From: Blasia pusilla
Lineage: Eukaryota
Length of the DNA: 64,000 nucleotides
Reading direction: 5' to 3'
Assembly: GCA_050084515.1 (NCBI GenBank)
Contig: CM114271.1
Coordinates: 24,428,001 to 24,492,000 of the forward strand
Shown in pieces: positions 451 through 51,348 of this stretch (position 1 is its first letter; each line of letters opens with the position of its first letter). The notes under the pieces are model-generated. The model saw nothing but the letters and a program-made list of their open reading frames with translations. It had not been told where the DNA came from and searched no databases. A program made the position numbers and the translations under genes.

Positions 451-1205
451 GCTTGACAGACATTTTCTACTCTCCTCAACAATGGGTTTTGGCGGAGTTA
501 TTCTCCGAAGAGGGGTAATCCACTCTCATTGGGAAAGTAACAAGCCAAAACATTCACTATTTTAATATGACTAAACTCCTCTAAGGTGACAACCCTCTCA
601 TCTCCACACACACATCACACTCTAGAAACCTCTCGAATAATAGACCATGGTCAAGTTACTCTCCCAAGAGGGGCGATCCGTTCTCATTGGAAGAGCAAGC
701 AATCCCAAAGTCATACACTCAAGAGTGACACGAAAGACTCAAGATGTGGAATAGAAGGTGATGAACCCTTGAAGGTCCCTCCTCTTTATATACTCACAAG
801 AGATCCACAAGAGTACGAAATAGAGCTAATCGTATCTTGTGCCACATGGCTTCCTCTCAAGGCTTAGCCAATCGCATTTTGACACAAATAGATTTCCTCT
901 TATCTCTTCCAAAATATCCTCTTTTACCCACTTGATATTTTCCAAATTACCCCAACTAACCTAGCCACCAACCAAGCCTACTTTTGCTTTTCATTAAAGC
1001 ACCGACCTCACTACTTTACTTTTATAAAGTCATCTTTTATTTATTACCTCTTTTCTAAAGTTAGGCCCGCATAAAAGAGGCACCATAAAGAGGTTTAAAC
1101 ATGGGGATTTATTTTTCCTAAGCTAATTTACTTAATACTAATAAAACTCTATCTAACACTTAACGAGGAAGGAGTTTACACACTGGCTGATTTTACTATA
1201 CGACA

Positions 1206-4200
1206 AGGTCATAACATTGGAAGCAGAAAATAAAGGAGTGGGGCATACAACAGTGGTTGCCCCGAACAACGTGCTCGACACATGCTCCTCCTGAACATCA
1301 GCAATAGGAGTCATCGCACTTGCTTCTCCCATCGCCCTCCGTGCATGCACACCAACAATATCACCAACACTCCGGGAACTCTGATCAGGACCCATCGATG
1401 GGGTCCTCATCGCCTCGGACAATGTGAAAGACTGAGGAAGCCTTGTCTGTTTCCTAGCTTCCCCTCGCTGTGGATCCAACTATGCGGCTACTCCATACGT
1501 AACAACTGCGGTGGCCTCCATCTGGGCAACCCCGCACATCCAACCAGGATCCTCCATATCTCTAGCTGCTCCATAACACGTTGATGCCACGGATCCGACA
1601 TCGAGTAACCTAAATGCCATGTCGGAAATCTACTGTTGTAGTTGTTGTATCTGAGCAACTATCCCAACCTCACGCCCGACGTCTCTCTCAACGCGTCTAG
1701 GTGGTGGAACTCTACCTCCTCCACGGGCAACTCAAGTTCTTTGTTCCCCAACGGGACCACTGGGTGCACGACCTCTAGGCCCACCCAGACCGGCAACTTG
1801 CTCTAGTGTCCTCTTTGGCCCTCATTCTGGACATACCTCACGGTGCAAGCTGAAACACGTGTCACGTGTGTGACTGTACCTCTGAAAATAGTCACACTGA
1901 TAACCTCCTGGTGCAGCACCATCTCCTCCTTCATGTTAAGGCACGCGTCCATGACCCTCACAAGTGCAATGATGCTGGTGATAGGCTCCACCACATGCCC
2001 AACAAACAATCATGGGCGGATGCTGCTGATCCGCATATGAAGGCTCAGGTCTTTGTGGCACGGCCTTCTGGTATCCTACCTGAGCTCGTGGTGCCACAGA
2101 CCTATCTCAGAATCCACGTTGCAGCATTGGTGGTGCAGACAATTGTGACTGCTCTCGCCCAGAACCCATGGTGGCTACGCTCCCCTTCGCCATGTTGCGC
2201 TCAATATTCTCGGCGGTCCTGAAAACATCTCTCAATTTAGGTAAGGTGTTCATAAGAAGCACTCCCTCCCGCACCCGTGTTTGTAGGGTTCGGTCTAGCA
2301 TCGCGTACCATGATTGGATAGCCTAGGACTCTATCACCCCCTGAGTGATGTTAATCAACTGACGCAAGTGAGTGTAGGCCTCACGCAGACTCTCACCAGA
2401 GCGCCTCTAGAAGTCGTGGATGCTTCACAACTTTTCCGTCTGTACCCCCTGGTAGTTCGTCCGCAACTCAGTAGAGAACTCAACCACGGGGTTGAACTTG
2501 GGATGAACTCGACTGGACAATGTAGATGCTCCAATGTGAGTTACCCCTCCCAAAACATCACTAGTAGAAGAGGAAGTAGCCTCACCTCACTCTTCCTCCT
2601 CATCTGGGAAGAGCTCCGTCCATGACACATAGGGTGGATCATCGTAGAGTCGCCATGCCTCAATCTCTTGGGCATTTCTATAGGAGAACTCATGGTAATT
2701 GTCCATGGGTGCCTCCTCCAAATTTTGGAACATTCCGTTCCATGCTGTAAACGGGTTGAACTGTCTAGAGTTCCTAGTCCGCTATGAGTCACACCAACTC
2801 CTAAACTTTGCAATGAAGTCATGTAACTCTATAGTGCCGATAGCACTCGAAAACTTGCGCGGTCCTCTACTTTGGTTGTCCATCTCGTACGCCCAACTGG
2901 TAGGACCACTCAATGTGTGGAGTGATGCACTAACAAACCCCTCTACACTCTCCCTCTTGTTCGAAGACAACATAGAAGGAGATCGCAGTGATCTCTCACG
3001 TGGAGACCCTCGAAACCTCACGCCATGACGAAAACCCTCTAGAGCTACTCTCAGATCCACCACCTTGGGTCTCAAAGTCCCAAAAGGATGCCGTGATGAC
3101 CCTCATGCCCCTCTCACATGGTCACTCTCAACCTTGCGAGTAATCGCTCAATCACTTAAGCTAACCATGCGGCACTCAATCTACACTCTCTCACTGAGAC
3201 GTGTGCTGTGTGGCAACAAGCGGCGTGGTGCGGAAAATTGACTATTGTCTTATCATCTCATCCGAAAAACATAACGTCAACTCTGGACATCCCACACAGG
3301 TCTATGTCCCCTAAACCCACATATCAATGGTGCTCTCAACATCCGCACGAAACCCAATATCCCAAATAACTACCCAATACCCGTAAATCCCTAGCACGTG
3401 CAGGGAAAAGGACCAGAATGGATAACCTAATAATAATGTCGATTGCTCCTGAGCAACTGGAAACCTCGATCCCAACTAGATCATAAAGACAAAATCCTCC
3501 AAATAGCACGTCGTACTCCCCTAGCACAGACGATGCTCAAATCTCCTTGATGTGCGGTGCGGATCCAACGATACGGTGTGGCACTAGCGGCACGGAACGG
3601 CTACAAACGACATGGCACGGCACTCAGAAATAGGATGCGGCACTCAGAAAAATACCCTCCTCAATCAACAAAACACAATATGATCCACAAGGATGGTGCG
3701 GATTTGCGATGGAGATGGTGCGGTACGGCCACAAGCGGCACGGTGTGGCAATTGGCGGCACGTTGCAGCTACAAGCATCCCGGAACGGTAGTTGATCTTT
3801 ATCGAGCGGCTACCAATCACAAAATATCAAAGCATAAAAGAAATGGCGACCCCATGACTCCAAAAAGGTCATCTTCTAATCAACAACGATGAAGAACGTC
3901 GTCGAGGGCAACCAACGGACGGAGTAAGGACGGCCCGCATGGATGGTGAAAGTCAATAGTAATTACGATATCTTTCATATGGGTAAAAATGGTTCTATTT
4001 TGACCTTATTCAAAATATCAAGTTTTTTTTTCCCACTCCACTAACTCCTTAAACTAAGGGTCAACTCACTAAAATTACTCACATTTGGCTTATAGTCCAC
4101 TAAGCCCCATGATTATTAGGTCAACACCCACTAAATAAAGTTTCCACTCACTTTAACCTCAAGATCTTAAGTTTCACTTGTCCTTTCCCCAATAATAAAA

Positions 4201-4614
4201 AATTTTAAATTTTTTTCTACCTCTACTAAGAAGTTACCAAGAATTTTGAAATTTGTTCCTTTCTCACGCGGTGGCTATGGCAACTTCACAAAAATGATCA
4301 TAACTTCTTGGTCACATGTTCAAATTGGGCATCCTTTCTTCCACAACTTCCATAGCTTCTTGATCTACAACAACATGAAATTAGTTTATTCATTTGACCT
4401 TCCCATAAAAACAGAGTGGGATTGTCGTGCAACTCTTCAATTATACTCCTACAAAAAATTTGGTAGTACTCCGCTTTGATTTCTCCCAAAAAAACTTGCA
4501 AACATGTAAACACAACAACCAGTAAGCTATAAGGTACTCTCGAGAGCAGCAGCATAGAGCAACCTGCCCCCATACTCAATTTCTAACCAAATTTTGGCAG
4601 CGCTTGCTTGGCCA
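1206..4614 (-). mobile_element. Second, truncated copy of the methyltransferase-carrying gypsy-type element (5' non-coding region, gag, zinc knuckles)
   Basis: Collinear reverse-complement homology to about 41221-44600, except an unshared stretch at about 3800-4240. Shared translations: ELHDFIAKFRSWCD, MLDRTLQTRVREGVLLMNT, CWACGGAYHQHHC and DPQRGEARKQTRLPQSFTLSE. Confidence 0.88.
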
Positions 4615-5125
4615 CTCTTGTAGCACTTATATCCCAAAATTCCATAAGCATAACCAATGAAGATACATCTTTCAAATTTGGGGTCTAATTTCTATCGTCT
4701 TTCAGAAAGAACATAATCATAATAAACACAGCCAAATACTTCCAAGAAGGAAAAATACGGTTTCCTTCCTATGAAGAATTTGAATGGAGTCTTATCATGA
4801 ACTATTGTTGTTGGAGTTCGGTCGATTAAGAAAACTACGCACGCTATAGCCTCTGCCCAATACACCTTAGGCATGTTCTTTTCATTCAACATAACATGTG
4901 CCACCTCAACAATAAGTCGATTCTTCCTCTCAACCACGCTATTTTGTTGTGGAGTGTCATAGCAAGTCACTTGTCGTTGGATACTATTTTGATGTCAAAA
5001 GTCATCAAAATTTGTTGAAAGGTACTCTTCTCCTCCATCACAACGCAATTTGAGAAATTATTTTCTAGTCTGCTTCTCTACCAGTTTAAATGTCCGATGA
5101 GCTTGACTATAACTCAGTCTTCAAA
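4615..5125 (-). mobile_element. Ty1/copia remnant: integrase core fragment joined to a short LTR 5' tip
   Basis: ORF 4692-4970 reads TPQQNSVVERKNRLIVEVAHVML...YWAEAI...FGC (copia integrase). 5098-5122 (TGAGCTTGACTATAACTCAGTCTTC) matches the copia LTR at about 47367-47391. Confidence 0.85.
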
Positions 5126-33998: not shown

Positions 33999-34000
33999 AA

Positions 34001-34018
34001 TGATGCTTCCACTGAGAG
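34001..34018 (+). promoter_or_regulatory. Primer binding site, tRNA-Thr-like (degenerate)
   Basis: TGATGCTTCCACTGAGAG lies 2 bp after the LTR end. It resembles TGGTGCTTTCATTGAGAG, the complement of a plant tRNA-Thr 3' end. Confidence 0.65.
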
Positions 34019-34064
34019 ATCTTTGAGGCGGTAGATTGTGTTTGCAAGTTGGATTCTTATCAAG

Positions 34065-36355
34065 ATGACTACTTTTGGTAGTACTTCATCAATGGGAACT
34101 GAGGGAGTTGAGGATCTTCTCCGAACTTTGACAACATTGTTGAGCCAACAAGGAGGAGTTCACATAGGAGAGCAAAGATCAACAAGGGCTCTTCAAGCGA
34201 TTGTAAAGAAGTTGGGGAGATTTAATGGGAGGAACATCACCAAGTATGTTCGAGAATACGTCTATGAGATGGAGGTAAATCATGTACCCGAAGGTGATAT
34301 GGTGTCAAGTTTTGAGTTAGTTGTAATACCAGAGATGCGTAGTCAAGTGAAGAAGTTGAGAGCAGAAAATTCGACCTCGTGGGAGGAGTATGAGCAGTTG
34401 CTGAAAGGAGAATTCTTCGATGATGATGTGGATCGAGTGACTAAGAGGAGTTTTTTAGAATGGATAGAGCAACGTCCAGGGAAGGGAATGACTCCAAATT
34501 AATTATTGCGTGAGTTTGAGAAGCGGTTTTTTCAGCTTTCTTCTTCTGGAAGAGCAACTCTAGACTTGAGGAAAACCGAGTTATTCCTTGAGACGGCTGA
34601 CGAGAATTTGGAGGACAAGCTTTTCATAATGTTGGCGGACAAGACCGAAGAAGGAGGTGTCAGCACTAATTGGAAGAAAGTGGAAGAAGCTGTTTCTATC
34701 CTTACAAAGCAAAATCGAAGTAGAGGTAGAACCGCACTATTTAAGTCGGAGGTATTAATTTCAAATCCATTGCCTAAGCCTGTTTCAACAAAACTTGAAG
34801 ATTCTGCTATAGATGAGTTGGTGAAAGGTTTGAGAGAATTGAGAGTATAAATAGAAAAGTTTAAACTTGATAGGAATCCTAGTGTTGGTGCTCCTTTGAT
34901 AAGTAGGAACTTTGTGAGAAGATGTATATGGTGTGATAGTGTTGAGCATCAACCTCAAGAATGTGAAGAGTTTTCAGAAGCTCTTAGGAATGGAATAGTA
35001 AACTTCAAAGATGAGAAGATTCATTCAACGTAGAATGATATGGCGTTGAATACCAACTTTGGTAGAGGAGGAATTAAAGGCTTAGTGAGAAGTCAAGTAG
35101 GAGTTGCCACTACGACATTAGATTCTGATACCTTTGTAGTAAAAATAGAAGCGCCTATTGTATCTGTAGCTAAAAGTGAATCATTACAATTTCCTCGAGA
35201 AGTGATGATACGAGGAGCAGAGACTATCCGTCATCTGACTGGATCCAATGGAAGTTGGGTGTGTTAAAGCATACCTACCACAAGAGAAACATGTGAGTTG
35301 GCAAGATGCTAGTGTGGAGGAGAAGAGGAGACGCGACAATGGTGGTGCTAATCTCGAGGAAGCTGCAAGAAGAGCAAGGACCGCAAGAAGGAAAGGGCAA
35401 CCAGAGGCGCAACCATCAAGAGAAGAAGGGCCTTCTACATCTGAATCTATGATGGATTCTCAAATGAAAGAAGGTGGAATGAAGGAGAAAGAATTGAGGT
35501 CTTCCCAGAAGACCAAGGGTAAGACTCCTACATACAAGTTGCAGTCTGATATAGAGACAAGCACGAATTTAAAGGAGATTCTTGAGGAGAGGATTAATAT
35601 TTTGGATGCAAAAATAGAGTTTTCTTTGAGGGAAGTCTTGGGCATAGCCAAACGTGACTTTCATGAGTTGATCATAGATATGATCAAAAGAAAAAGGCAG
35701 ATGACTTCAGATATGGTGATGGTGAGGGCATTGGATACTGACATCAAAGAAGAAGAAGATGAAGAGCTTTACCAAGTTTTTGGATAAAAGCTTGACTTAC
35801 AAGGAGAAGAGGCGAGAGTATGAGAAGCCTTGATAAAACAAGGTGAAGAAAGACACAATGGTGAACACTATTCTCAGTCATATTGGGCGCGTGCAACGAC
35901 GGAGGCTAGAGTTCGACTCGGCTCTCTCCAAGAGTCAGTTATGGCTCTCGTTGATCATGGTTCGGAGATCAACATCATGTTGCAAAGTATATACGACAAA
36001 GGGATGTGGCCAATTGATACAGGGCATGGATGGGTAGTACGAGCGGCTAACAACCAAAAAGGTGAACCCTACGGTGCTTGTCCATCCGTCAAAACCCGTA
36101 TCGGAGATGTGTTAATTGAGCAAAATTTCTTTGTTCAGAATGGAGCTGCTTATCCTGTGATTCTTGGGCAACCTTACATCACAACATCTAGTGGAGACCA
36201 AAGTCATGGATGATGGGTCTCATTATGCCCGTATTAGAAGTCAAGATGGAACAAGATCAGTTCAATTCCTTCTTGTACGAGTAGGTCATGAAAGGAATAG
36301 AGAGAAGTTGAGAGATGGTCCTATGAAGGTAGAGAAAGAGTTTTCGGATTTTTAG
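34065..36355 (+). pseudogene. gag-protease ORF of gypsy family A (stops and frameshifts)
   Basis: ORF fragments 34038-34850, 35248-35787, 35830-36213 and 36164-36355. Motifs RFNGRNITKY, zinc knuckle, VDHGSEIN and YPVILGQPY. Confidence 0.88.
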
Positions 36356-39300
36356 TTAGCACTCCTGTAGAGCGGGAATATGGGGATGCAGAGAAAAGAA
36401 AGAGTCTTCCGCTAGGAGAAAGGGAAGAATCATATATGTTTAGGTGTGGGTTTTCTCAATGTTTTTCTCCGTGGTCTAGTAGATTCCAAATGATGAAAGA
36501 AATGAATGAAAAGAAAAAATGTTTTATTAAAAAAAAGGGTTTGTTAAAATGTGAGGGTGTTCTATTAGATGAAGAGTTCATTAGTGGGATGTATGAAGAA
36601 GAGGGTTTTGGAGATATTCTTGAAGAGATGTTTACCCAGATGAGCACCGATTCGCTGGATATAAGTGTGATTACAATTCACTCGCGTGAGTTGCATGAAG
36701 AGATATCAAGGTTCATGGAAGGAGAAAATGAATATGAATCTACGGAGAAGGAAGCGGATGGGCACGGGTTTGAGTCTGACGAACATCCCATGGAAGCACA
36801 AGTGCACACAAAATACAAGAAAGTGGCCTAGAAGGTGAAACCAATGGCTACTCAACTACCACAGGGTTGTGGGAGACAAGTACAACGTGCATCAATGGAG
36901 CCAAGTCTGCGGGATGTCAAGAAGATAGGATACAAGTTCACAGAAGAGACGCTAGATCGTCTGCAAATCGGAGGGGGTGAGTTTCTCACAGAAATTGAAA
37001 GAAAAAGCTTTCGGGAGATGTTAAGGAGACATGGTAAGGCTTTCTCTTTTATTACACAAGAAATTGGTTATGTAGACACGAGTGTGGTGACACCGATGGT
37101 AATTTTCACAGTTCCACATGTGCCTTGGGATTTGAAACCCATACGAGTACCACGAGCTATGATTCCCAAGCTGATTGAGTTATTGAAGGAGAAGATGCAG
37201 ATGGGTATCTTAGAGCCATCTATGGGACCTTACTCGAGTTGATGGTTCACTATGCCGAAGAAATCAAGAGCTCTCCGATTCATTCAAGATATACAACCGA
37301 TAAATAAGGTAACCATTCAAAATATGGGAGCGGGGCCTAGAATAGATGAAGTCGCAGAAGCTTTTGCAGCCCGTGCTATCTATTCTATACGAGATTTGCA
37401 CTCAAGATATGATCAATTCCAATTAGCTAGAGAGAGTAGAGATATTACCACTATGCGCACTCCACTTGGGCTTGTAAGAATGTGCACATTACCTCAAGGA
37501 GCAACAAATTCTGTCGCTCACATGCAGTGTGCAATGAATAAGATCTTGAGAGAGTTCATTCCTGAGAAAACCATTCCTTTTGTAGATGATATCCCTATAA
37601 AGGGATGTGCAATAGAAGATAGGATTGAGAGGGTTGTGAAAGATGGGTGTAGAAAGTTTGTGTCTGATCATATTCGTGATGTGGATGTGATCCTAACAAG
37701 ACTAGAAGAGGTCAATCTTACTCTTTCTGGAGAAAAGTGTAGCTTTGGGGTTCCTCAGATTGTGGTAGTGGGTCATCTTTGTGGAGAGTTTGGCCGAAAA
37801 CCAAATCCAGAAAAAGTAGATGTCATCGAGAGGATACGAGAATGCAAAAACGTCACCAAAGTGAGAAGGTTTTTAGGAGCTTGTGTGTTCTATCAGGTGT
37901 GGATTCCTCATTTTAGTTACATACGTGATCCTTTGTATGAGTTGTTGAGAAAGAAGAAGAAGTTCACTTGGGAGAAGAAGCAAAGAGTGACAATGATGCA
38001 GTTGAAGGAGGCATCGAAGTCGCCACCAGTTCTACGATAAATGAGTTACGAATGCGGAAGACCTATTATCATCATAGTGGACACTAGCCCTATTGCTATC
38101 GGGTGGGAAGTTGGGCAGGATGACGCGGAAGGAAGAAGATTTGCGACAAGGTTTGGAGCTCGTACACTCACGGAACGACAGAGGAGGTACCCTCAGGTAA
38201 AGAGGGAGCTTTGGGGAGTTGTAACTGCAATGAAAGTTGAGAAGGAGTATCTTATGGGAGCCTATGTATTGCTTGAGATTGATTGTCTACCTTGGTTAGA
38301 TATGATTGTGAATTGTACAACTCCAGATATAGCCATGCTACGTTGGATAGCCTACATTAGGTCCTTGAATCCACATTGAAGCATATAGCTGGGAAAGAGA
38401 ACTCAGTAGCTGACATGTTGTCTAGAGTTAGATTTAGTCAAGAAGAAGATATGGAGGCAACTGAGATAGATGAGGATGATGCTCATGTGTGGCAAGTGTT
38501 ATCTCAAGAATGAGGTGGCATAGAGGATGTTCTAGTCTTCAAAGAGAATTTGTATGAGGGCAGGTTAAAAGAAATTGGGTGTTATTTAAGCACTCTGCAA
38601 AGAGACGGAGGGTGGACAGACAAGTTCTTCAAGGAGATCCGGCGCAAGGCGTATGGCTATCTACTACAAGATGGATATCTTTGGAAAAGGCCAAAGAGGA
38701 AAGATGGAATGCCCTTGAAGGTGGTGGATGACAATGGGACAAAAATGCAAGTGCTCAAAGAATTCCACAATTCTTTATGGGCGAGTCTGAGGTACTTGGG
38801 CAACTTTCACCAAGATAAAAGAGAGGTATTGGTGGAAAGGCCTATATAAGGATGTTGAGAGATATGTTGGGTCGTGTGTTGAATGTCAGTTTCAATCAAA
38901 AATCAGGGTGAGAGATGGACTTAAACCCACGTATCCTTTGTCTATTCATCATCAATGGGTTATAGATCTAGTTGTTATGCCACTAGGTCTTTGGGGAATG
39001 CGTTACCTGGTCCTAGCACGAGAAGAGTTGTCCAACTTTGTAGAAGGGAGGGCTTTGCGGGCTAAAACAACAAAGCCTATATGTCGTTTTATTCTAGAGG
39101 ATATTATTACTCGATATGGGAGTGTCGGGAGAATCCATGCAGATAGAGGTGAGTTGAATGCGGAGGAAGCACGAGAGTTCTTCAAGAGATATGGAGTCCA
39201 GTTGAGATTAACAACCTCCATGAATCCTGAGGCAAACGGCAAGAGTGAAAGGGGACATCCGCCAATCATTCAAGCATTGGTAAAGCCGTGTGGAGATCGT

Positions 39301-39840
39301 TATGCTGATTGGCCTAGATTACTTCCATTTGCTTTATGGGCAGATAGAACCACTCATAGCACCCTTACAGGGTCCATGCCTACAGAGTTTATGACAGGTC
39401 AAAAGCCGATAATGCCAGTAGAAGGAGATATATCCACTTGGATGGGTTTGTCGTGGAAAGACGGGCTCGATAGGGAAGAGCTCCTAGCACTTCGAATGCA
39501 GCAGCTAGAGCGGCGAGAAGAAGATATTACATAAGCATTAGTCAAAATGAAGGAAGCAAGGTTGAAAAATAAGGAGCGCTTCGGCAAAACTCATCGACTT
39601 CGGAAGGAGCCGATAAGAGAAGGAGATTGGGTCTTGATGCATGACAACAGCCTCGACAACCAGCATAGTACAATTAAGAAGTTTGCACGTCGTTGGTTTG
39701 GTCCATACGTTGTAGTCTTTGCTTTTGACAATGCCACTTACAAACTACGTGAACTAGATGGCACAATTCTTAAGCTGCCCATTGCAGGAAAAAGGGTCAA
39801 GATTTTCCGTAGACGTGAAGGATTTCTTGATTTTGATTGA
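36346..39840 (+). pseudogene. pol (RT, RNase H, integrase) of gypsy family A
   Basis: VHTKYKKVA, LPQGATNS, FVDD, VDTSPIAIG (RNase H), WVIDLV...ADRGE...NGKSERGH (DDE). In-frame stops at 36829, 37240, 38038 and 39532, plus frameshifts. Confidence 0.93.
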
Positions 39841-39934
39841 ATGTGTCTAGAGGCACAACATAAATAAGTCTATAGCAAGAAGTCTCAATATTTTCGGCAC
39901 ATACCGGAGGATGTGCAGGTTTTGAGGGGGTGAA

Positions 39935-40273
39935 TGTTGTATAGTAAAATCAACCAGTGTGTAAACTCCTTCCTCATTAAATGTTAGATAGAGTTTTATT
40001 AATATTAAATAAATTGGTTTAGAAAAAGAAAATTCTTATGTTTAAACCTCTTTATGGTGCCTCTTTTATGCGCGCCCAACTTTAGGAAAAAAGGTAATAA
40101 ATAAAAGATGACTTTATAAAAGTAAAGTAGTGAGGTTGCGGGCCCAACTTTAGAAAAAGGAGGTAATAAATAAAAGATGACTTTATAAAAGTAAAGTAGT
40201 TGCTTTAATGAAAAGCAAAAGAAATTTGGGCTGGTGGCTAGGATAGTTGGGATAATTTGGAAAATATTGAGTG
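39935..40273 (+). repeat. 3' LTR of gypsy family A (5' part only)
   Basis: Follows the PPT GAGGGGGTGAA. Matches 32666-33004, including the internal duplication, then breaks off. Confidence 0.92.
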
Positions 40274-40980
40274 TGTCAAAGTTTCTTCCATGGTCACTTC
40301 GACTTTCCGCTAGCCCTATACTACCACTTTAATATAAGGTTAAGATATACACCTGCCAATTTTGCACAAGAGAGACTACAAAAGGCAATGTTCACGCAAT
40401 GACTTCATCATAAAACTCTTGGCCAAACTTCCTCACCATAAAATCTCTATATGCTATCTTAGATCGACAAACCACATGGACTATACACTGAGTGTTAAAA
40501 AACACTTGTGGGGGCCTATTCAAATCCATTCCCCATGTTACGTCTTTTAGGATAGATCGATAAGATCTAGTAGAGCGCCTTCGCGAGTAGTGCAAGACAT
40601 GCTCACGAGGTCGAGGACGACATGCTGAGGCCCCGGGAAACCTGAGAGAGCAGGTTTCTCCTTCGTTTCGGCTCATTTGGAGCCATATTGAGTAAATTAC
40701 TATTTTAGGTAAGTACCATTTTGAATACATGATTAACTTTCTATTTTGGGAAGTGGCCCTTGACCTCTTACATTAGGTCAAGATCCAAAGAGATGACTTG
40801 GGATATAGGTTACCATGGAGAGAGCTTGGTAGAAGGGAGGGATATACCTCAAGGAGAGAGAGCTTGAGAGCTCACTCTCTCTTTGTTGAACCTCTTGGCA
40901 TGAGGCGGCGGAACTATGATCCTCCTTGCCTTGTGTGTGTAACCCATGCCTCTCATTAGGAGAGTGGGTTTGGTTTGACA
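40274..40980 (-). mobile_element. Solo-like LTR of a related gypsy family B
   Basis: TGTCAAA...TTTGACA inverted termini. Starts exactly where the family A LTR breaks off. Contains an ORF-b homolog near its 3' end. Confidence 0.75.
40329..40529 (-). pseudogene. ORF-b homolog in the family B LTR (one premature TGA)
   Basis: MDLNRPPQVFFNTQCIVHVVCRSKIAYRDFMVRKFGQEFYDEVIA*TLPFVVSLVQNWQVYILTLY*. Gap-free alignment to 33702-33902. Confidence 0.65.
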
Positions 40981-41895
40981 TGAGAGAAAGTGCGCATCAT
41001 GGAGAGCTTGGTGTGAGATGTGATGTGAGATCTACTTATTTTTACAAAGAGAGAATGAGAGAATGAAGATTTGAGAGCTACGATGGAGGAGCTTGTTGGT
41101 GTTTGTTGTTTGTTGCAGGTTGGAGGACCGTGTTCCGTGCTTCATGGCTCACAAGAGTTCTCATGGGAGTAGGAGCCATTCGTTTCATGTTATTTCTTGT
41201 TGATTGTTCGTTTAGAAGATTGGCGCGCGGAAGCCCTGCCCAAATTTCGGCAGAGATTGAGTATGGGGGCAGGTTGCTCCATGTCGGTGCTCTCGGGAGT
41301 ACCATGTAGCTCTCTAATTTGTTTTTTTAATAGGTTTTAAATTTTTTTTGGAAGAAATTAGCGCAAAAGCGTTGCCAAAATTTATGTAGGAGAAGAGACG
41401 TTGGGATTTACGAGAGTCCCCGTCAGTCTTTATTGGAAGGTCCAATTCAAAATATCTTTTGACGCCGGCATAAATCGTGAAGTTTTGCACGTTGTGCAAA
41501 AAAAAGTGCACAATTTGAAGTTGCGAGCAAGTGATCGAGACAGTGCGATCCAGCCACGAGCCGCACGACACAACAATCGGCGGCGCGTTGCAACTACGGG
41601 TGTCACGACACAGTACTCGATCGTCGTCGAGCGGCTACCAATCACAACATAGCAAAATGAAATAAAATCTCAAACACCATAACTCGAGGTCACTGGCCAT
41701 CACTGGTTGATGATGAAACTGCGATAATGGTGGCGGCCACAACAAAGTACGTGGTGGCGGCGCAGTCAAAGAATCAATGGTCGTTGTGGAAGACCGTCCT
41801 CTCCGTAATGACGGCAATGGCAACAAACGGCGGACAACGGCCGAAAGCAGCTATGAGCAGCGATAGGCGGTGGCGGCGGTCAACAGTCGACAGTG

Positions 41896-42030
41896 GACCG
41901 TTGATGATGTAATGATGACGGTGACGGTTGATCGTTGACAATGACGGTGGACCGTTGATGACGTATCGTTGACGGTGATGGTTGATCGTTGATGGTGATG
42001 GTTGACCGTTGATGACGACTATGACGGTGA
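41896..42030. repeat. Imperfect 54-bp tandem repeat (about 2.5 units)
   Basis: GACCGTTGATGA recurs at 41896, 41950 and 42004. Confidence 0.8.
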
Positions 42031-45000
42031 CGGCCGCCAATGGCACGGCGGCTGGTTTAGGGTTTGAACAATTTTACCCAAAAATTACCTAGCAATGGCA
42101 ATTTTGCAAGATTGACCATAACTTCACTATGGAGCAAAGCGTGTGTATTGCTGATTGTGGAGGGTATGCCGCGGAGTGCCGCATCCCATTATCGAGTGTC
42201 GTGCCGTTCTATAGCCGTTCCATGCCGCACCGTATCGCTGGATCCGCACCGCATATTGAGGAGGCTTGAGCAGCGTCAATATGAGAGGAGTACGACTTTC
42301 TGATTGGAGGGGTTGTCTTCACGACCGAGTTGGGGTAAAGATTTGCAATTGCAAAGGAGCGATATCAAATTTTGTTTAGGTTACCCATTCTGTTCCGTTT
42401 ACCTTGCAAGTGTGAGGGAATTCTTGGTATTGCGCTGTTATTTGGGGATATTGGGTTTTGTGCAGATGTTGAGAGCATCATTGATGTATGGGTTTAGGGG
42501 ACATAGACCTATGTGTGATATCCAGAGTTGAGGGTATGTCCTGTCGATGAGATGATAGGATAGTAGCCGATTGCCGCACCATGCCGCTTGTTGCCGCACA
42601 ACACACGTCTTAGTGAGAGAGTGTAGATTGAGTGCCGCATGTTAGATTGAATGATTGAGTGATTACACGCGAGGTTGAGAGTGATCGTGAGAGAGGGGCA
42701 TGAGGGTCATCACGGCGTCCTTTTAGGACTTTGAGAGGTGAGGTGGTGGACCTGAGAGTAGCTCTAGAGGGTTTACCCAGAGTGGTGCAAGGTTTTGAGG
42801 GTCTCCATGTGAGAGACCACCTCAATCTCTTTTTGTGTCGTCTTCAAACGAGGGGGAGAGTGTAGAGGATTTTGTTAGTGATTCGTAACACACACTAAGT
42901 GGTCCTACCAGTTGGGCGTACGAGATGGATGACCGGGATAGAGGATCACGTAGGTTTTTGGGTGATGGAGGCACGATAGAGTTGCACAACTTCATTGCGG
43001 AGTTTAGGAGTTGGTGTGACTCACAACGGGCTAGGAACTCCAGATAGTTCCACCCGTTTACAGCATGGAATAGAATGGAATGTTCCAGCATCTAGAGGGG
43101 CATTCATGGACGATAACCATGAGTTCTCCCATAGATATGCTCAAGAGATTGAGGCATGGCGACTCTACTATGACCCACACTATGTGTCATGGACGGAGCC
43201 GTTCCCAGATGAGGAGGAGGAGTTAGGAGAAGTTACTTCCTCTTCCACTAGTGATGTTTTAGGAGGGATCACTTGCACTAGAGCAGTTGCACCATCCAGT
43301 CGGGTGCGTCCCATGTTCAACTTTGTGGTTGAGTTCTTTGCTGAGTTGCAAGCGAGCTACCAAGGGGTACGGACGGAGAGGTTGTGGAGCATCCACGACT
43401 TCCAGAGGCACCCGGTGAGAGTTTGCGTGAGGCTTACAGTCGCTTGCATCGGTTGATCAACGTTACTCATGGGGTGACAGAGGCTTAGGCTACCCAGTCA
43501 TTGTACGCGATGTTGGATCGAACCTTGAGGACACGTGTGCGAGAGGGGGTGCTTCTTATGAACACCTCCCCTACGTTGAGAGATGTTCTTAGGACCGTCG
43601 AGAATATAGAGCGCAACATGGCAGAGGAGAGCGTAGCCACCATGGGTTCTGGGCGAGAGCAATCACGATTTCCTGCACCACCAGTGCATCAATGTGGATT
43701 TTGAGATAGGTTTATGGCACCACGAGCTCAAGGAGGATACCGGGAGGCCGTGCCACAGAGACCTCCGCCTTCATATGCCGCTCAACACCAACGGCCTAAG
43801 ATTATTTGTTGGGCATGTGATGGAGCCCATCACAAGCGCGATTTCACTCATCACGGTCATGGATGCGTGCCTCAGCATGGAGGAGGAGTTGGTGCTGCAC
43901 CAGGAGGTTATCAATGTGACTATTGTCACAAGTACGGTCATACACGCACCAAGTATTTCAATTTACACCTTGAGTTACGTCCGGACCGAGGGCCAGAGAG
44001 GGCACTAGAGCGAGTTGTTGGTCCGGGTGAGCCTAGAGGTCGTGCACCAGGTGGTCCCATTGGGGGACGAGGAGGTGGAGTTTCCCGTGGAGGAGGTAGT
44101 GTTGCACCACCTAGATGCGTCGAGGGAGACATTGGGTGTGAGGTTGGGATGGCTGCTTAGATACAACAGCTACAACAGTAGATTACCATTGTGGCACTAA
44201 GGTTATCTAATGTCGGATCGGTGGCATCGACGTCTTAAGGAGTAGCCAGAGATATGGCGGATCCTGGCTGGATGTGCGGGGTTGCCCAGATGGAGGCTGC
44301 CGCAAGTGTTATGTGTGGAGCAGCTGCAGAGTTGGATCCTCAACGAGGGGAAGCCAGGAAACAGACCAGGCTTCCTCAGTCTTTCACGTTATCCGAGGTG
44401 ATGAGGATCCCATCGATGGGTCCTCATCCCCGGAGAGTTCATGATGTTGTTGGTGTGCAGGCACAGAGGGCGATGGGAGAAGCAAGTGTGATGACTCCTA
44501 TTGCTGATGCTCAAGAGGACCATGTGTCGAGCACATTGTTGGGGGCGGCCACAATTGTGTACCGCGCTCCTTTATTTTCTGCTTCCGATGTTATGACGTT
44601 GGAAGGTACGCCCACCAAGGTTTTCCGGTTGGCCGCTACGCTATGTGAGCGTGGAGTTGGAGTTCCTACATCACCTTCAGAGGTGATTGCAAAGGAGGTG
44701 ATGGACCTGCCCTTGGAGCCAATGCTCGAGCCGTCCACATCAGATTCATGGCAAGCTGCAACTGCTAGGATGACGAAGATGCCCACTAGACTCACGATAG
44801 AGTGTGCCATGGTTTCTCCTTGTGTTGTGTTGTTGGATAACTAGGGAGAGGTCTTCAAGTTGGTGAGTCCATGAGGTAGAGCTTTTAGTCCGCAGTCCGT
44901 CTTGTTGGATTTAGGAGCGCAACCCCTTATGTTGGGGAAAGCGGCATTAAGAGGTTTGGGCTTGACAAGGGCCGGAGCATTGTCCATTCAGGATACATAC

Positions 45001-45613
45001 ATCCTTGGGTGGAGTGAGTACCACACAGTATATCACCGGATAAGAGGTCGTGGTGAGGATTCACCTGGGATATCCTATAGATGAGTCAGTGGTGTGAGCC
45101 AAGGCGATAGTGATCGATGCATAGTCCTACGACGTCTTGGTTAGTGGAGCAGTATTGTACCCGATGGGGTTTTTCCTCGATTACAGGGAGGAGTCAGTGT
45201 CCTACACACCAAGATGGCAGTTCGATGATGGACCACTTTGTTCATTACCCGTTCGATTCATGGGTGGAGTGATCGAGTGACGGCCATGAGAGATGGCGAC
45301 CTTAGTAGCATTTAGCAGTGCCATCACTTGGCCTAGTGATTTGATTGAGGGACATGTCCATGCGGAGGACACTCCCAGTCCTGACATTTATATGGAGAGG
45401 AGTGTCATGGTACCCGCATCATTCCGTGGAGGAAAGTTGCCACTTTGGGGCTCGACTAAGGAGCTTTGACGCTTAGCCGCTGAGCATGTGCAGACTGTGT
45501 GGAGCAAGACGTTTGCACAAGAGCGTGATGGGTCAAAGGAACCCGAGGTAGCTAAGAGTGCTACTATGATCCCTTTGGACACCACCCTGATTGTGTGGTG
45601 CATTCTAGAGGAG

Positions 45614-46565
45614 GGTATTTGCGTGATAGATCTCTTTGGCAGGATTAGCACTAGTTTAGCTGCTATTTTACAGGCTAAAGTACTCGTGCAGCAATACTTG
45701 TATGTAGAGATTGATGATGTTGCAAGGTGCGCTTCACTTCACCATGTGGCGTAGTTACGCCTCCATTTTCCCAACTTGTTGTCTGCGTCCGTTGTCCAGG
45801 GATACCAGAGTTCCCTACCAAGGGATATTTCATTGTTGGGGGCGTAGGACTTGGAGCGGGTAGGGACCATCAACTTGGTCATTGCTGGTTGGCCGTGTCA
45901 GGGCCAATCAAGTGTTGGACGAGAAAGCGGATTAGCTGACTCTCAATCCAGGTTGTTTTGGGAGATGATGCGGATCTTGGGACATTTACAAGAGCATCAG
46001 TCTCGTTCTTCATCATACATTTTGGACAATATGCCAATTTTGGGCGATTCGAGGTCCCGCGTGGTGACGAGTGTACATCAGGTTCGCGCATGGATCGGCC
46101 CAACAATATTTTTGGATGCGGCAAGTGTAGGTTCACGAGCACATTGCTGGCGTCTTTGGCGGACCAACTTGGTGCCACATGAGGTTTTGCGTAGGGTGTA
46201 TGCAAGAGTGGGGCGTCCCTCCGATTTGTTGGTGTATTCTATTATGGATCCAGGTCGTCAATCACAGGCAGCGAGGCACGATGATCGACCGTCGTTGACT
46301 GTGGTCAACAAGATTGGTATGCCGCAAGCAACCTTTCCCACATTTGTGAGTTTTCCCGCTCCCTATGCATTCAAGGAGGTCGGGCCTGACTTGGTTTGGG
46401 ATGACCAAGTACAACGGTTAGTGGAGCCCAACGCCAATGAGCGAGAGTGAGCGATGGGATTCCCCACAGGAATGAAGGTAGTACCGTCACTATTAAAGTC
46501 ATCACAATGTCATGCTTTGGGTCAGGAAATGGACATGAACTGCTTGACATGGATTTTGAGCTTAG
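45614..46565 (+). pseudogene. DNMT3-like cytosine-5 DNA methyltransferase domain within a retrotransposon polyprotein
   Basis: Single frame with motifs in canonical order: I VIDLFGRISTSL, II YVEID, III RDI, IV NLVIAGWPCQG (Cys at 45896), V GLADSQSRLFWE, VI YILDNM, VIII AHCWRLWRTNL, IX ERE*AMGFP, X ALGQEMDMNCLTWIL. Three in-frame stops (45752, 45845, 46448). Confidence 0.9.
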
Positions 46566-47083
46566 GAGTAGCTGAGCAACGTCGTTTGAGGTTCCGATAG
46601 ATTACAGATGTTGCGTTGGTGAGCCCCATGCCTATTGAGACGGTTGAGGCAGTGGCTGGGGGCGAGACTCGAGGAGATCAACATACCAAGGGTGATCGAG
46701 AGAGACACCCTTGGACTTCTTGGGATGTGTTGGAGGTACGCATGGAGATGATAGCCACATCATCAAGCGTGGTTCCAGATACTGCACGTGGAGGAGATCC
46801 GATTTTACAATTGGCTGGAGGAGAGCAATCGAGTTCTGTTGTTTGAGATAGGGTTGGACCATAGCAACCACCAACATCCGCGCCAGAGAGTCCTATGATG
46901 GAGACTTGGGAGCCAGATATGGGCCCTAAGTTGACAGGAGGAGAGCGGCGCTAGATACATCCGTTCCTTAGGAGTTATAGGAGTTTTTTTGCATTTAGTA
47001 TGCATGATTTGGGTACACTGAAGGGTCCAAACATCTGCATTGAGTTGTCGAGTGACACGTCGATCTTCTACCGATCTTGTATG

Positions 47084-48890
47084 TGTGGAAAATTTCTAAA
47101 CAAACATAACTGGTGGAAAACGGCTCTCACACACACACACCACCACGGAGAACGAAATTTGCAATGAGAGAATGAGTGGAGGCAGGTCCTCTTCTCAATT
47201 ATATAGGGTATGTACAAGAAATCCTAACCCTAACCTTAACCATAGTCTTGAGTTACACTTATTGTGATTAACTAACCCTAATTAAGATAATCGTGCTTAA
47301 GTGACTAACCAAGATTAAGATTCCCTACTTCGTGTGAGTACCAAATATAGTAGTTCAGGTGTCTCATGAGCTTGACTATAACTCAATCTTCAATACTCCC
47401 CCTCAAGCTCATATCGATATTTCTAACGCCTAAATCCTTTCTAAACATCTCAAACTTATCTCTAGACAATGCTTTTGTAAAGATGTCAATAATTTGCTGA
47501 TCTGTATCTATATATACAAGATCAATTTCTAGTACAAGCACTTTCTCTCTGATAAAATGATAGTGCACTTCAACATGCTTTGTACGAGCATGAAACACAG
47601 GGTTATTAGCAAGCTTGATGCTACTAATATTGTCTGCATATATTACATTAGGTCCTAAATTACTAACACCAATCTCAACAAGTAATCGATGAAGCCACAC
47701 CGCCTCACATGCAGCATTGGTTGCTCTTATGTACTAAGCCTCTATTGAAGATAAAGCAACTGTAGGTTGCTTCTTTGAAGCCCAACTTATAGTTGCGCTT
47801 CCCAAAGAAAATGAATAACCATATGTGGTGTGTCGATCAAACACGCTTCCAACCCAATCAACATCTGTGAATTTCTCTAATTGAAAACTCGGAGAAGGTT
47901 CAAATTGAAGCCCGAATTGAATAAAAAATTTCACATACCGCATAATCCTCCTCACAACATCAAGGTGAGGTTTTCGAGGTGCTTGCATAAATTGGCTCAC
48001 TAGGCCAACAACATAGCTCAAATCTAGTCTGGTTATAGTTAGATAGATCAAACTTCCAACCATGCGCATGTACATATTAGAATCTGCAAGCAGCTCTCCT
48101 TCATCCACTCTTAGCTTCACGCTCTGGTCCAACGGTGTAGAGATTGGCTTACAAGCCGTCATACCATATTTTGAAAGCTTATGAAGAGCATATTGTCGTT
48201 GTAGTAACCACATGCTCTCTCTAACCTTGATAAACTCAATACCAAGGAAGAACTTGAGTTCTCCCAAGTCCTTCACATCAAATTCTGCTTGTAACTTAAG
48301 CTTGACTTGTTGTACCATTTCTTCAGTACTTCCAGTAATCAAGAGATCGTCAATATACAACACAATGAAACTATATGATCTCGTCCTCTCAAGACCTATA
48401 ACGAGGAGTCAAAATCACATACCCTAAAACCCAACTCTTGAAGGACGTATGTAATCTTGCCATACCAAACTCTTGGAGCTTGTTTGAGCCCGTATAGAGC
48501 TTTCTTCAACCTGGATACACGAAATGGAAACTTGGGATGCTTGTATCCAGGTGGTTAAGTCATATCCATTCAAGAAGGCATTCTTGACGTCCATGTGATA
48601 TAATCTCTACTTCTTACTTATTGCAATTGCAACCACTGTTCTCATAGTCTCCATCTTTGCAACAGGGCTAAACATTTCCTCATAATCAAAACCATATTAT
48701 TGTGCATAGTCCTTAGCCACCAATCTCGCTTTGTATCTGTTAATTGTACCATCTTGATTGCGCTTGATTTTGTAAACCCATTTGTAACCAATAGCTTTTT
48801 TTACCGGAGGGTATATCAACCAGCTCCCATGTTTGTTGATGTCTTAATACAACAAGCTCGTCCTCCATAGCTTCAATCCATTCGGCTTTA
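47084..48890 (-). mobile_element. Ty1/copia 3' part: RT, RNase H, PPT and 3' LTR (47084-47395)
   Basis: LYIDDLLITG, SKKQPTVALSSIEA, NPVFHARTKHVEVHYHFIRE and SLRGS. PPT GAGGGGGAG followed by an LTR ending TTTCCACA. Confidence 0.95.
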
Positions 48891-51326
48891 TGTAATATCT
48901 TAGTGTTTCTTATTAACAGTCAATTGTAGAGTTCAATCCCCAAGAGGATCATTGTTGGATGAAAAGAGAGTATAAAGTGATGATTATGTTGTAAAAGTGT
49001 AATTGATTATGTAATTCAAATGTAGTATTCCAGTATCAGCTTCCGATCCTTCTTAGTACCTAGGTTTTCTTCTTCAATTCTCTCAAGTGGAGTTTAAAGG
49101 ACGCTCAAGCAATTTGTTCTCTCATCATCTCGGAACCTCACAGAGACCTCAAGAATAAAGCTGGCTTCTCCTACTTTCGGAACTCAATCCGTCGGGGTAG
49201 GTTACTCTCTGTCAAACAGATTTTATACAACTTTATATTGATTATTCCATTGATGAGAAAGGTTTTGATTCACTCTTCACTCGGCAGACCCAAAAAGAAT
49301 ATTCAGACATAAGCATCGCACATCAGAATGAATGAATGAATGCCTTACAACTCCATCAAGAATTGGAAGACTTCAAAGTATCTACAAGCTCGAGAGGGTA
49401 CAACTCTCTTGCTCGGACCATTCCTACAGCATAAGGACTTCATGAGCGAATGATGCTAATAGCTTCATCTGTTTCTTAAATATTCTCGAGAGTAGGATGG
49501 TTTCTATGATCCGAAGCGTTCTTGATGAAGTTGGTGTCTTTTCAATATCTGTAACTACCTAGATCTATGGTTCTCTTAGCTTTTCCTACGATCCCTATGA
49601 ATCCGCGGTACAAAACTGTCCTAACTACAATTTGATACAAAGGGTCGCGCCTTTCCTAGTCTAATTGTTTAAAGTATGTGTCGTTTGAATCTCAATCATC
49701 TTTGAGCACTGCGCTAATTTTCCGGAGGACGAAGTGCTTCTTTCTTCTTAGGTGCCGTGCTTTGCGTTCTTCGTTCAAGAGCGAAGTACTTCGTATATAG
49801 AGCCGTTGAGCTTCGTTAAACTTTGTTAAGCTTTCGCTAAGCTTTGGCTTTGAGCTTTTTGCAGCGTTGATCCTTTATACTTCTTTCTGACTTTTGATTC
49901 TCCTCTAAGGCAAATCCTTGATCTTCATCTCTCGCCTTGTCTTGGAGCTTGGTGATTCACTTATTCTTCTTCATAATAATAGATAATCATAATCAAAATC
50001 ATAATATACAAGAGTCTTCGTTGAATAAAAAGATATATTCTTCAAGATTACAAAATTGTGGGTATCACATACCCCCTCCCTAAAATGTGAGCCGCCCCGG
50101 CGAACACTTCATGATGTATCTGCTATCTCCATAAATGTGTCGTCTAAACTATCAAATTCAGGGGTAGGCACCAAACGGCCATGAATCGTAGAAGGTTTGT
50201 TGATAATGTTAGGGGTATGATTGCGCATTCTTTCTCGCGACTTGTTAACAACTAAGTGACTCCCGAGGACTTCATTCTGGACTAAGACATCAGATGGAGT
50301 GAATGCTGGTAATTCTTCAAGAGTAATGGAAAGAGTGGGTACTACTTCTGGAAGAGATTTAGTATGATTGTCGAATTGGCACTTCCAATGTTTGTTGATG
50401 TAGTCGATTTCCTCGTTCATCTGCTCTTCGAAGTTCTTGCTTGCTTCGTCGACTTGTTCTTTGACATCGTCCGGGTCCATCTGGGCTTCGTTAAGTAGCT
50501 TTTGCTTTGCCTCCAAGACTGCGATCCTCCCGGTAGCCTCTGCCCACTGTGCCAGTAAGTCTTTGTTCGCTTCTTGATGTTCTTGAAGCAGCTTCGAAGA
50601 CTCGGCATGTTGGATCGACAACTTCTTGAATTCGTGTGAACCTCTTTGATTCGATGTCGATACTTGTCAATGAGGTGCGAAGCCTCCTTGATCTGCGAAA
50701 CTAACTGATCCGCCCCACATTCGAGGTTAAGCGCCAAACTTTCCCATTGGCGTGCGTTCCGTGCTTCGTACTGACACTGGACCAAGTCGCTCTAAGATTT
50801 GCAAAGCGTGGTCTGCGTTTCTTCGAGTTCCTGATTCCGTATTTGCAGATTCGTTTCTGCTACTCGACGCTGTACTTTCGTGGTCTGACGAAGCTTGGGC
50901 TCTGCATTTGAAGTCGTGCAAGCCTTCTAAATAATCGTCCACGGACGCCGTATCCTCGAGGTGAAGAACCCGTTGGAGTTGGTTCATGACGGGAACTGCC
51001 AATTGCAAGAACCACATCATGTCGTCTGCCGTCTGCGACATGAGACGAAGGGTAGGTTGATGATCCCTTGCCCGCGGGGTCTCAGAATCCTCCTGCATGA
51101 CAGGTTCTGGGCCCGGGGGTGATTCAAAATTGACCCGGCCTCGCTTTGGCCGAGGCATTTCGTTGATAGCTTCGTCTTTCTTCAAAGCCGAAGTGTGCGG
51201 ATGTTGCTGAGGTGCTTCGGAGGGCGGGGTGACTTCGCGGCTACCCCTGGTACTAGTTGCGCCTTTCCGTGGTAGTCGGACGGGGGTCACTTGCGACCAA
51301 TCTAACGCCTCCTCTGCGGTCAATTC
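48891..51326 (-). mobile_element. 3' end of a third LTR retrotransposon (probably gypsy): extra ORF, PPT and 3' LTR (48891-50069)
   Basis: Minus-strand PPT AGGGAGGGGGTA, then TGTGATA...TATTACA termini. Interrupts the copia RT at KAEWIEAM. Confidence 0.8.
50109..51326 (-). pseudogene. Frameshifted accessory ORF (charged, coiled-coil-like) just upstream of the PPT
   Basis: Overlapping ORFs 50727-51329, 50417-50785 and 50109-50621 tile the region. No pol motifs. Stop lies about 40 bp from the LTR. Confidence 0.6.
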
Positions 51327-51348
51327 CACTAGTAGAAATCCCTGGTTT

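Follow-up and report, generated by a model that had tools for sequence, protein, structure and literature searches.

A decayed Ty3/gypsy copy with a DNMT3-like methyltransferase in Blasia pusilla, a probable member of a land-plant branch of the Gypsy-DNMT3 lineage

Cytosine methylation is the main weapon of the host against transposons and, since host methylation counters them, it is paradoxical that a transposon should bring along a de novo methyltransferase of its own. To our knowledge, published cases of transposon-borne methyltransferases come only from dinoflagellates and from one charophyte alga. The closest described system is that of Klebsormidium nitens, for which the available passages of de Mendoza et al. 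(2018, PMC5890265) report a gypsy element, present in few copies, with intronless DNMT3-type domains in its pol polyprotein and Ka/Ks values below 0.2; later papers, in the parts available, refer to "streptophytes (Gypsy-DNMT3)". Here we analyze a stretch of 64,000 nucleotides, termed the window, from Blasia pusilla (assembly GCA_050084515.1, contig CM114271.1, positions 24,428,001 to 24,492,000 of the forward strand). A preliminary description of this window had proposed an intronless gypsy-type retrotransposon with a DNMT3-like cytosine (C5) methyltransferase (MTase) between the protease (PR) and the reverse transcriptase (RT), and our results support this proposal. In particular, it is highly probable that positions 42925-47068 (+), possibly with a 5' long terminal repeat (LTR) starting at 40536, are a decayed and 3'-truncated Ty3/gypsy copy of the land-plant (liverwort and moss) branch of the streptophyte Gypsy-DNMT3 lineage.

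The element type is ordered as Gag, with two CCHC zinc knuckles, PR and DNMT3-like methyltransferase, followed by an in-frame stop and then by RT, RNase H (RH) and integrase (IN). In the window copy, gag, PR, DNMT and the start of RT are all collinear with Marchantia polymorpha proteins in tblastn: residues 9-659 (gag) of protein P0007 align to 42940-44973 with 38-55% identity and 8 stops, its residues 662-1243 (protease and DNMT) align to 44975-46729 with 49% identity, and the RT N-terminus of P0009 aligns to 46907-47074 (Table 1). The gag start codon is the ATG at 42925, and the first residues of gag are similar to the Marchantia N-terminus. This start agrees with the preliminary description, which had placed the end of the element at 47083; the true end, given by a breakpoint in the sequencing reads, is 47068. 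A single forward frame, 44975-47068, holds the protease, the C5 cytosine methyltransferase and the RT start. Read over 44876-47083 (+), it comprises 736 codons with 16 in-frame stops (translated as X), 11 of which lie from 45120 on (45122, 45278, 45287, 45467, 45752, 45845, 46448, 46598, 46844, 46862 and 46952), and the two remaining frames are closed throughout by stops. The stop-masked translation, the Pfam matches and tblastn thus bear out the earlier statement that one frame, from about 45120 to 47080, carries the C-terminal half of the protease, the C5-MTase and the segment preceding RT. The protease as a whole does not share the frame of the MTase: its C-terminal part does, but the DLG active site (44908-44916; DSG in the three of three relatives spanning the site, P0007, P0009 and P0015) lies in the gag frame, parted from the downstream frame by a frameshift at 44973/44974. 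Both the Gag with CCHC knuckles and the aspartic protease of a Ty3/gypsy element are therefore present in degenerate form. The two knuckles lie upstream, as had been described, and each has lost its last Cys when the window translation is compared with relatives; the Pfam zf-CCHC and PR models give no score on the window copy but do score on relatives, and the PR part is identified as Asp_protease_2 in P0028, P0030, P0133 and P0061.

The translated frame scores 28.8 bits against PF00145 (DNA_methylase), over a curated cut-off of 22, which places the domain among the C5 methyltransferases. As had been noted from the sequence, the MTase motifs occur in order around the catalytic PCQ, starting with motif I at 45617 and followed by IV, VI, VIII, IX and X, with motifs similar to ENV, AHR..R..W.NL and E.ERE.MGF after PCQ. 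The closest solved structures by sequence are DNMT3A catalytic domains. A family profile built from 12 members ranks DNMT3A first (2.6e-17), then DNMT3B/C, the solved chain 4onj, titled only "DNA methyltransferase" (2.8e-9), DRM2 (2e-6) and M.HhaI (3e-5). The AlphaFold2 model of a moss member, based on a 57-row alignment, reached a pLDDT of 81.9 and a pTM of 0.82; with this model, all 32 rows listed by Foldseek among ranks 1-47 are DNMT3A/B/C, with TM-scores of 0.78-0.83 on catalytic-domain chains, and the protein-atlas structure search led to a chordate DNMT3A at a TM-score of 0.71. Nearest to DNMT3 by profile and by fold, and with motifs that are not rearranged, the domain fits the DNMT3 subfamily, as proposed in the preliminary description. 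No PWWP or ADD domain was found by Pfam in P0001, P0007, P0030, P0133 or P0061. Conservation among relatives (64 type A and 120 type B rows) amounts to 98% in type A and 100% in type B for the motif IV Cys, to 100% in both types for the ENV Glu and to 89-100% for the Arg residues of motif VIII.

A protein search with the DNMT part returned 24 homologs, 15 of them with an organism name (Marchantia polymorpha 11, Calypogeia fissa 2 and Sphagnum 2). The named homologs are all annotated as hypothetical or unnamed, and several contain RT, RNase H or integrase Pfam domains; the best match (E 1.6e-119) is Calypogeia P0003, to which the MTase domain of the window is 58% identical. The MTase is found in all named relatives, and the homologs are element copies, not intron-bearing host genes. 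Of 25 long homologs, 16 have the composition gag-PR-DNMT, a length of 1,275-1,451 amino acids and no listed RT family, but Pfam reveals the order CCHC-PR-DNMT-RT-RH-IN in the single open reading frame (ORF) of P0030 (2,318 amino acids), and CCHC-DNMT-RT-RH-IN, with no protease family listed, in P0056 and P0260. A scan of metagenome contigs identified 74 moss loci of the family. Among those of at least 9 kb (n=28), RT follows DNMT on the same strand in 21, only the integrase end is seen in 3 and 4 stop at DNMT. RT and integrase are thus present in complete copies: the order RT-RH-IN, with integrase last, occurs in P0030, P0056, P0260 and these 21 long loci, and the window itself holds only about 55 RT codons. 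Furthermore, paired LTRs, 88-94% identical and about 8.5-9.7 kb apart, surround the full domain set in five loci (L009, L043, L045, L046 and L056). An LTR element of opposite orientation (1398-9228), with LTRs that are 94% identical (1398-2183 and 8444-9228), is nested in locus L036, where it interrupts the DNMT domain. Two loci with 37% matches, L072 and L073, had been considered as a host DNMT3 comparator and were discarded, both being heavily decayed copies of the element family.

Beyond these relatives, the element-family profile matched 7,060 cluster representatives at an E-value limit of 0.001 and 461 at a limit of 1e-30; the 150 best-scoring of the 7,060 all have an E-value of 4.8e-61 or better. 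Two domain orders dominate among 231 fetched proteins, PR-DNMT(-RT-RH-IN) and RT-RH-DNMT-IN, the latter often with a PHD finger. In a tree of 185 DNMT domains, of which 143 rows were typed by domain order, one branch parts the PR-DNMT from the RH-DNMT-IN order (1 change among the 143 typed rows, support 98), and the window belongs to the former. Rooting the IQ-TREE tree on the RH-DNMT-IN architecture yields a PR-DNMT clade that holds the window together with P0133 and P0061 (support 99), and a liverwort and moss clade of 22 rows (support 95), within which the window falls in a core of 17 rows (support 100), alongside Calypogeia and seven rows from Marchantia. The K. nitens group lies near the base of the tree and the Closterium group is intermediate, the deeper nodes having a support of only 82-89; the branching order resembles the streptophyte phylogeny, which is not proof of vertical descent. 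P0133 corresponds to GAQ93235.1 of K. nitens and P0061 to GJP34393.1 of Closterium sp., both CCHC-PR-DNMT by Pfam, and Marchantia P0007 aligns collinearly with P0133 over the protease-to-DNMT part (569 residues, 29% identity, E 2e-54). The window family therefore presents the features of streptophyte Gypsy-DNMT3, namely an intronless DNMT3-type domain in a gypsy polyprotein and homology to K. nitens. Given that GAQ93235.1 shares both the CCHC-PR-DNMT order and the DNMT clade, the lineage appears to be the one already published as Gypsy-DNMT3 in the available passages of PMC5890265, with GAQ93235.1 possibly among that paper's own elements. P0068, P0074 and P0224-P0228 represent a larger second gypsy group, in which RNase H precedes and integrase follows the DNMT3-like domain, with a PHD finger behind the integrase, and for which the parts of the literature consulted contained no name.

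Reads from the source species indicate how widespread the association of gag and DNMT is. Runs carrying the same species label, one of DNA and three of RNA, were mapped to 40300-49000 at 80% likeness. With both orientations summed, DNA depth is 1,436-2,124 in the DNMT bins and 1,277-2,051 in the gag bins, and this equality implies that DNMT is present in essentially all copies with the same gag. The mean depth over 42919-46992 (4.07 kb) is about 1,910, or some 0.4% of a total of 1,966 million sequenced letters, and the DNMT element family is hence a major repeat in Blasia pusilla. The family is also transcribed in sense: over gag-PR-DNMT, the three stranded RNA runs present depths of 17-82 in one orientation and 0-10 in the other, or about 10:1 in favor of sense.

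Between DNMT and RT the family carries a conserved in-frame stop, a feature absent from the preliminary description, which in the window reads TAG CAA CCA, with RT in the same frame. All 33 moss loci with a recognizable site have a stop there (TAG in 21, TAA in 12), followed by CAACCC in 32 and CAACCT in 1, and RT is in the DNMT frame in 28 of 37 moss loci, with indels of 1-2 bases in the other 9. RT lies two frames off the DNMT frame in eight moss loci (L014, L018, L022, L036, L040, L048, L053 and L060), in six of which the DNMT-RT spacer measures 272 instead of the usual 273 bases; these loci may be a subfamily that spread after the change in the spacer. The C-termini of many metagenomic ORF1 proteins, and of the gene models of Marchantia and Calypogeia, lie 60-180 residues past DNMT and are specific to the subfamily. 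In the PR-DNMT clade, most proteins that lack RT stop no more than about 180 residues after DNMT; the window stop at 46844 aligns with the end of the Calypogeia model. The MTase thus lies upstream of the conserved stop, in the Gag-PR reading frame and not in the RT-IN part. Since no high copy number can be attained without RT and integrase, translational readthrough of a leaky stop is the simplest reading. Gag-PR-DNMT would then be the main translation product of working copies, to which rare readthrough of the TAG/TAA-CAA-CC stop would append RT-RH-IN, and the methyltransferase, by virtue of its position upstream of the stop, would be made in Gag-like amounts. The leaky stop context of tobacco mosaic virus is UAG-CAR-YYA, and among retroviruses the murine leukaemia virus type obtains gag-pol through readthrough of an in-frame stop, with the avian type having its protease in the gag frame.

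The window copy itself is dead, as had been surmised, on account of its 16 stops, its frameshift, its damaged catalytic motifs and the break at 47068, past which it lacks RT beyond about 55 codons, RNase H, integrase and the 3' LTR. The MTase domain itself contains three of the stops (45752, 45845 and 46448). In motifs I, VI and VIII the copy departs from the consensus where 89-100% of the relatives agree, so that of the catalytic residues (motif IV Cys, VI Glu and VIII Arg), which are intact in relatives, the window copy does not retain the full set, its Cys being present. At 44973, 500 of 1,431 DNA reads carry 5 extra letters. The two copies of the family in the window (Table 1) differ by 287 transitions and 128 transversions and have a CpG observed/expected ratio of 0.67; relative to the source-species reads, the window presents A/T where reads present G/C at 575 places, against 265 in the opposite direction. 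Deamination of methylated cytosines gives transition-rich decay, and these transition-rich differences, with the A/T excess of the window, make up the pattern expected from it. Most source-species reads are less than 90% alike to the window, and the window copy is thus an old outlier.

The limits of the copy differ in how well they are defined. Past 47068, 733 DNA reads and 53-54 RNA reads enter sequence unlike the window with an agreement of 0.90-0.96, which identifies 47068 as a breakpoint where the element sequence stops; tblastn detected no RT, RH or IN of the DNMT element family to the right of this position within the window. On the 5' side, DNA depth (both orientations summed) is about 4,070 in the bin 40591-40881 and about 2,150 in 40882-41172, compared with about 1,900 in the element body, and before 40536 the loose ends of 1,500 DNA reads show a low agreement of 0.56, as corresponds to varied flanks. 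There is no second copy of 40536-41170 in the window, and this stretch is consequently not confirmed as an LTR of the DNMT element; it may be an LTR of the family or a separate solo LTR. The search for paired LTRs of the window copy, which is cut at 47068, gave no direct-repeat partner anywhere in the window. The stretch 40536-41170 (+) is a very high-copy repeat with strong same-sense RNA (160-313), and RNA reads link 47776 back to 40536. A TGG-starting stretch at 41221 was dropped as a primer binding site (PBS), as it is not conserved in the second copy. After the leader segment that the two window copies have in common, about 600 bases (41546-42141) are not shared between them. The approximately 600 bases at 41527-42124 (+), unshared between the window copies, contain short tandem units of GTTGA type, and DNA-read joints of opposite strands from about 41527 to 42124 indicate an inversion or a palindrome at this place in other copies.

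Table 1. Features of the DNMT element family in the window, with the evidence for each.
Feature	Coordinates	Strand	Evidence
Candidate 5' LTR (uncertain)	40536..41170	+	Raised DNA depth, varied upstream flanks, TG start
Leader segment common to second copy	41231..41545	+	About 70% identity to 4622-4307 (-)
gag, degenerate, two CCHC knuckles	42925..44973	+	tblastn with P0007; knuckles at 43807-43845 and 43915-43956
Aspartic protease region	44860..45330	+	Aligns to PR part of P0007/P0009
DNMT3-like C5 cytosine methyltransferase domain, inactivated	45614..46565	+	PF00145; PCQ at 45893-45901
Family-conserved in-frame stop, TAG CAA CCA, between DNMT and RT	46862..46870	+	RT in frame in window
RT segment, first ~55 codons, then breakpoint	46907..47068	+	61% identity to P0009 residues 696-751
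Second partial copy of the DNMT element family (leader and gag only)	1204..4622	-	83% nucleotide identity to 42142-44601

What the enzyme does, or did, in working copies admits several readings. The conservation of its catalytic residues argues for a catalytic role and, because the enzyme would be packaged with Gag, we tentatively favor the possibility, still short of a probable one, that the targets of methylation are the cDNA or the insertion site of the element, much as the preliminary description had surmised for a processed polyprotein subunit: it would travel with the particle and act on the new cDNA or at the integration site, the window copy itself presumably doing nothing at present. 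The roles proposed in the available passages of PMC5890265 are methylation of new cDNA (for self-marking or for protection against deamination), action on chromatin at the insertion site, and self-limitation. This last option leads to a second, somewhat doubtful reading, in which DNMT is kept for self-restraint or camouflage, so that methylation of its own insertions or cDNA leaves the element quiet in host heterochromatin and less harmful to the host. It is listed by the authors of that paper in the text available, and the window copies do show the transition-rich decay expected of methylated DNA. However, the data give no means of telling self-methylation apart from routine silencing by the host, the CpG observed/expected ratio of an adjacent copia fragment is lower still (0.55 versus 0.67 for the DNMT element copies), and the family has reached a high copy number. 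A role without DNA methylation in the life cycle, with an RNA substrate or with the domain as a structural or nucleic-acid-binding spacer in Gag-PR, seems improbable: RNA methylation has been raised, in the available passages of PMC5890265, for one type of element that showed no DNA methylation in yeast, and the domain does sit in the Gag-side ORF, but 89-100% of the 64 type A and 120 type B rows conserve the catalytic Cys, the ENV Glu and the Arg residues of motif VIII, and the fold matches structures of DNA-bound DNMT3A/B/C.

Two further readings concern the origin of the domain. Derivation of the MTase from bacteria or phages and not from DNMT3 might be suggested by the protein-atlas feature search, in which phage DNA-methylase clusters (0.95) stand next to the streptophyte cluster (0.96); we nevertheless consider it very improbable, for the family profile ranks DNMT3A far above M.HhaI, and the listed Foldseek rows and the protein-atlas structure search lead to DNMT3 proteins. 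There is, finally, next to no chance that the window records a one-off chimera, in which a host DNMT3 fragment or processed pseudogene came to lie inside a single gypsy copy. DNMT is indeed found on only one of the window copies, the second (1204-4622, -) ending within gag, but the equal depth of DNMT and gag in the source-species DNA reads, the recurrence of the PR-DNMT and DNMT-RT junctions in Marchantia, Calypogeia, Sphagnum, Closterium, K. nitens and the 74 metagenome loci, and the LTR-flanked and collinear loci among the latter refute it.

Several observations nonetheless weigh against the preferred interpretation. The DNMT match is open over more than 80% of its length in only 4 of 34 moss loci, all 28 aligned moss copies have 1-11 stops in DNMT, and the pairwise dN/dS of the moss copies lies just moderately under 1, with a median of 0.61, 0.85 at dS below 0.1 and 0.54 at dS 0.2-0.3. 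The RNA reads may come from dead copies, those presented here for the source species including no intact full-length one. In the source species, 931 of the 1,431 DNA reads at 44973 do not have the 5 extra letters, and the frameshift may thus be common there or its absence under-reported by short reads. The LTR, the PBS and the polypurine tract of the window copy are not established, and the label "DNMT3-like" derives from best-match ranking and a modelled fold. As regards expression, readthrough is itself a reading of the sequence; the stops at 46844 and 46862 are six codons apart and either may be the native one, the stop is followed by CAA-CCC in moss and by CAA-CCA in the window, and the subclades of P0030 and P0056 have no stop but one continuous ORF. 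Folding of the sequence after the stop gave no support for an RNA structure, with z-scores of -2.05 in the window and -1.00, -0.35 and -0.71 in three moss copies.

The remainder of the window contains further transposon sequence. The second copy of the DNMT element family matches residues 4-490 of P0007 with 39% identity and 11 stops in tblastn, and ends near 1204, adjoining a 47-base piece (921-967) of the LTR of a neighboring gypsy element. This other gypsy element (32666-40281, +) is flanked by LTRs of about 350 bases (32666-33012 and 39935-40281; 95% identical over 300 bases) and harbors RVT_1 (37243-38040) and an integrase (38791-39534). DNMT is absent from it, and the identity between its RT and that of the DNMT element family is no more than about 25%. 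Directly after the breakpoint of the DNMT element lie unrelated sequence and a copia-type RT fragment (47383-48408, -; RVT_2 at 47734-48408, E 2.4e-18), with a DNA depth of about 470-630 and almost no RNA. An ORF with DUF4218 (57473-57895, -; E 1.4e-21), a domain typical of plant CACTA-type transposases, provides the sole Pfam match among ten other long ORFs of the window, and two adjoining open frames of 185 and 206 amino acids (50109-51347, -) have no Pfam match. Rfam yielded no match over the whole window.

The same gag-PR-DNMT lineage is found in liverworts and mosses, including the model plant Marchantia, in which its copies are annotated as hypothetical proteins, and this presence in bryophytes makes the question posed by a transposon with its own methyltransferase testable in tractable land plants with published methylomes and DNMT mutants. 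The counts of "DNMT3" genes in bryophyte genomes can be inflated by element copies. The conserved stop leads to a prediction on dosage, namely that the enzyme would be made with Gag and not with RT-IN. If the proposal is true and the enzyme active, a transposon-borne de novo enzyme would add 5-methylcytosine (5mC) to element cDNA, insertion sites or host DNA, and would have to be counted beside host DNMT3, DRM and CMT in bryophyte methylomes. A broader scenario, which we regard as speculative and unlikely to hold in full, would have an old streptophyte lineage that went onto land and that, in some bryophytes, is high-copy and transcribed and makes a Gag-protease-DNMT3 fusion at Gag level, the activity of which, if any, would leave measurable 5mC. 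The novelty of these findings is moderate, consisting of a land-plant branch of a kind published in 2018 and of its expression feature. The preliminary description knew of no land-plant case; in the open full text consulted, no paper names a land-plant Gypsy-DNMT element, and searches by Marchantia locus names returned nothing, but the lineage is known from K. nitens, unrecognized copies exist in public protein sets, and the supplementary trees of PMC12344493 and PMC5890265 may hold bryophyte copies.

The in-frame stop of the family finds parallels in well-known viruses. As in the murine leukaemia virus type, it is placed between an abundant upstream product and RT-IN, but the upstream product of the element would contain a protease and a methyltransferase. 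The TAG-CAA-CCA of the window fits the tobacco mosaic virus context, whereas the moss context ends in C and not in A. With regard to the enzyme, the vertebrate DNMT3A/3B/3C catalytic domains are the best profile and fold matches and share the motif order I-IV-VI-VIII-IX-X, yet identity to them is only about 20% and the element domain, lacking PWWP and ADD by Pfam, resides inside a retroelement polyprotein. Plant DRM is a more distant homolog of the catalytic domain, as indicated by the profile values for 4onj and DRM2, and its motifs are rearranged, according to the available passages of PMC5890265, whereas those of the element DNMT are in the standard order. Among mobile elements, the metagenomic gypsy type with the order RT-RH-DNMT-IN(-PHD) (P0068, P0074, P0224 and others) possesses a homolog of the DNMT3-like domain, with E below 1e-61 against the family profile, but places it between RNase H and integrase and has WECQD in motif IV, in contrast with the WPCQG of the order to which the window belongs. 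The closest resemblance is to KnitGypsy-Dnmt3, which likewise, as far as the available passages of PMC5890265 describe it, combines an intronless, non-rearranged DNMT3-type domain with a gypsy-type LTR polyprotein. Those passages make no mention of an in-frame stop after DNMT and report Ka/Ks values well under the moss-copy dN/dS of 0.54-0.85 obtained here; in addition, the family analyzed here has land-plant hosts and is abundant in Blasia pusilla, as opposed to the few copies described in K. nitens.

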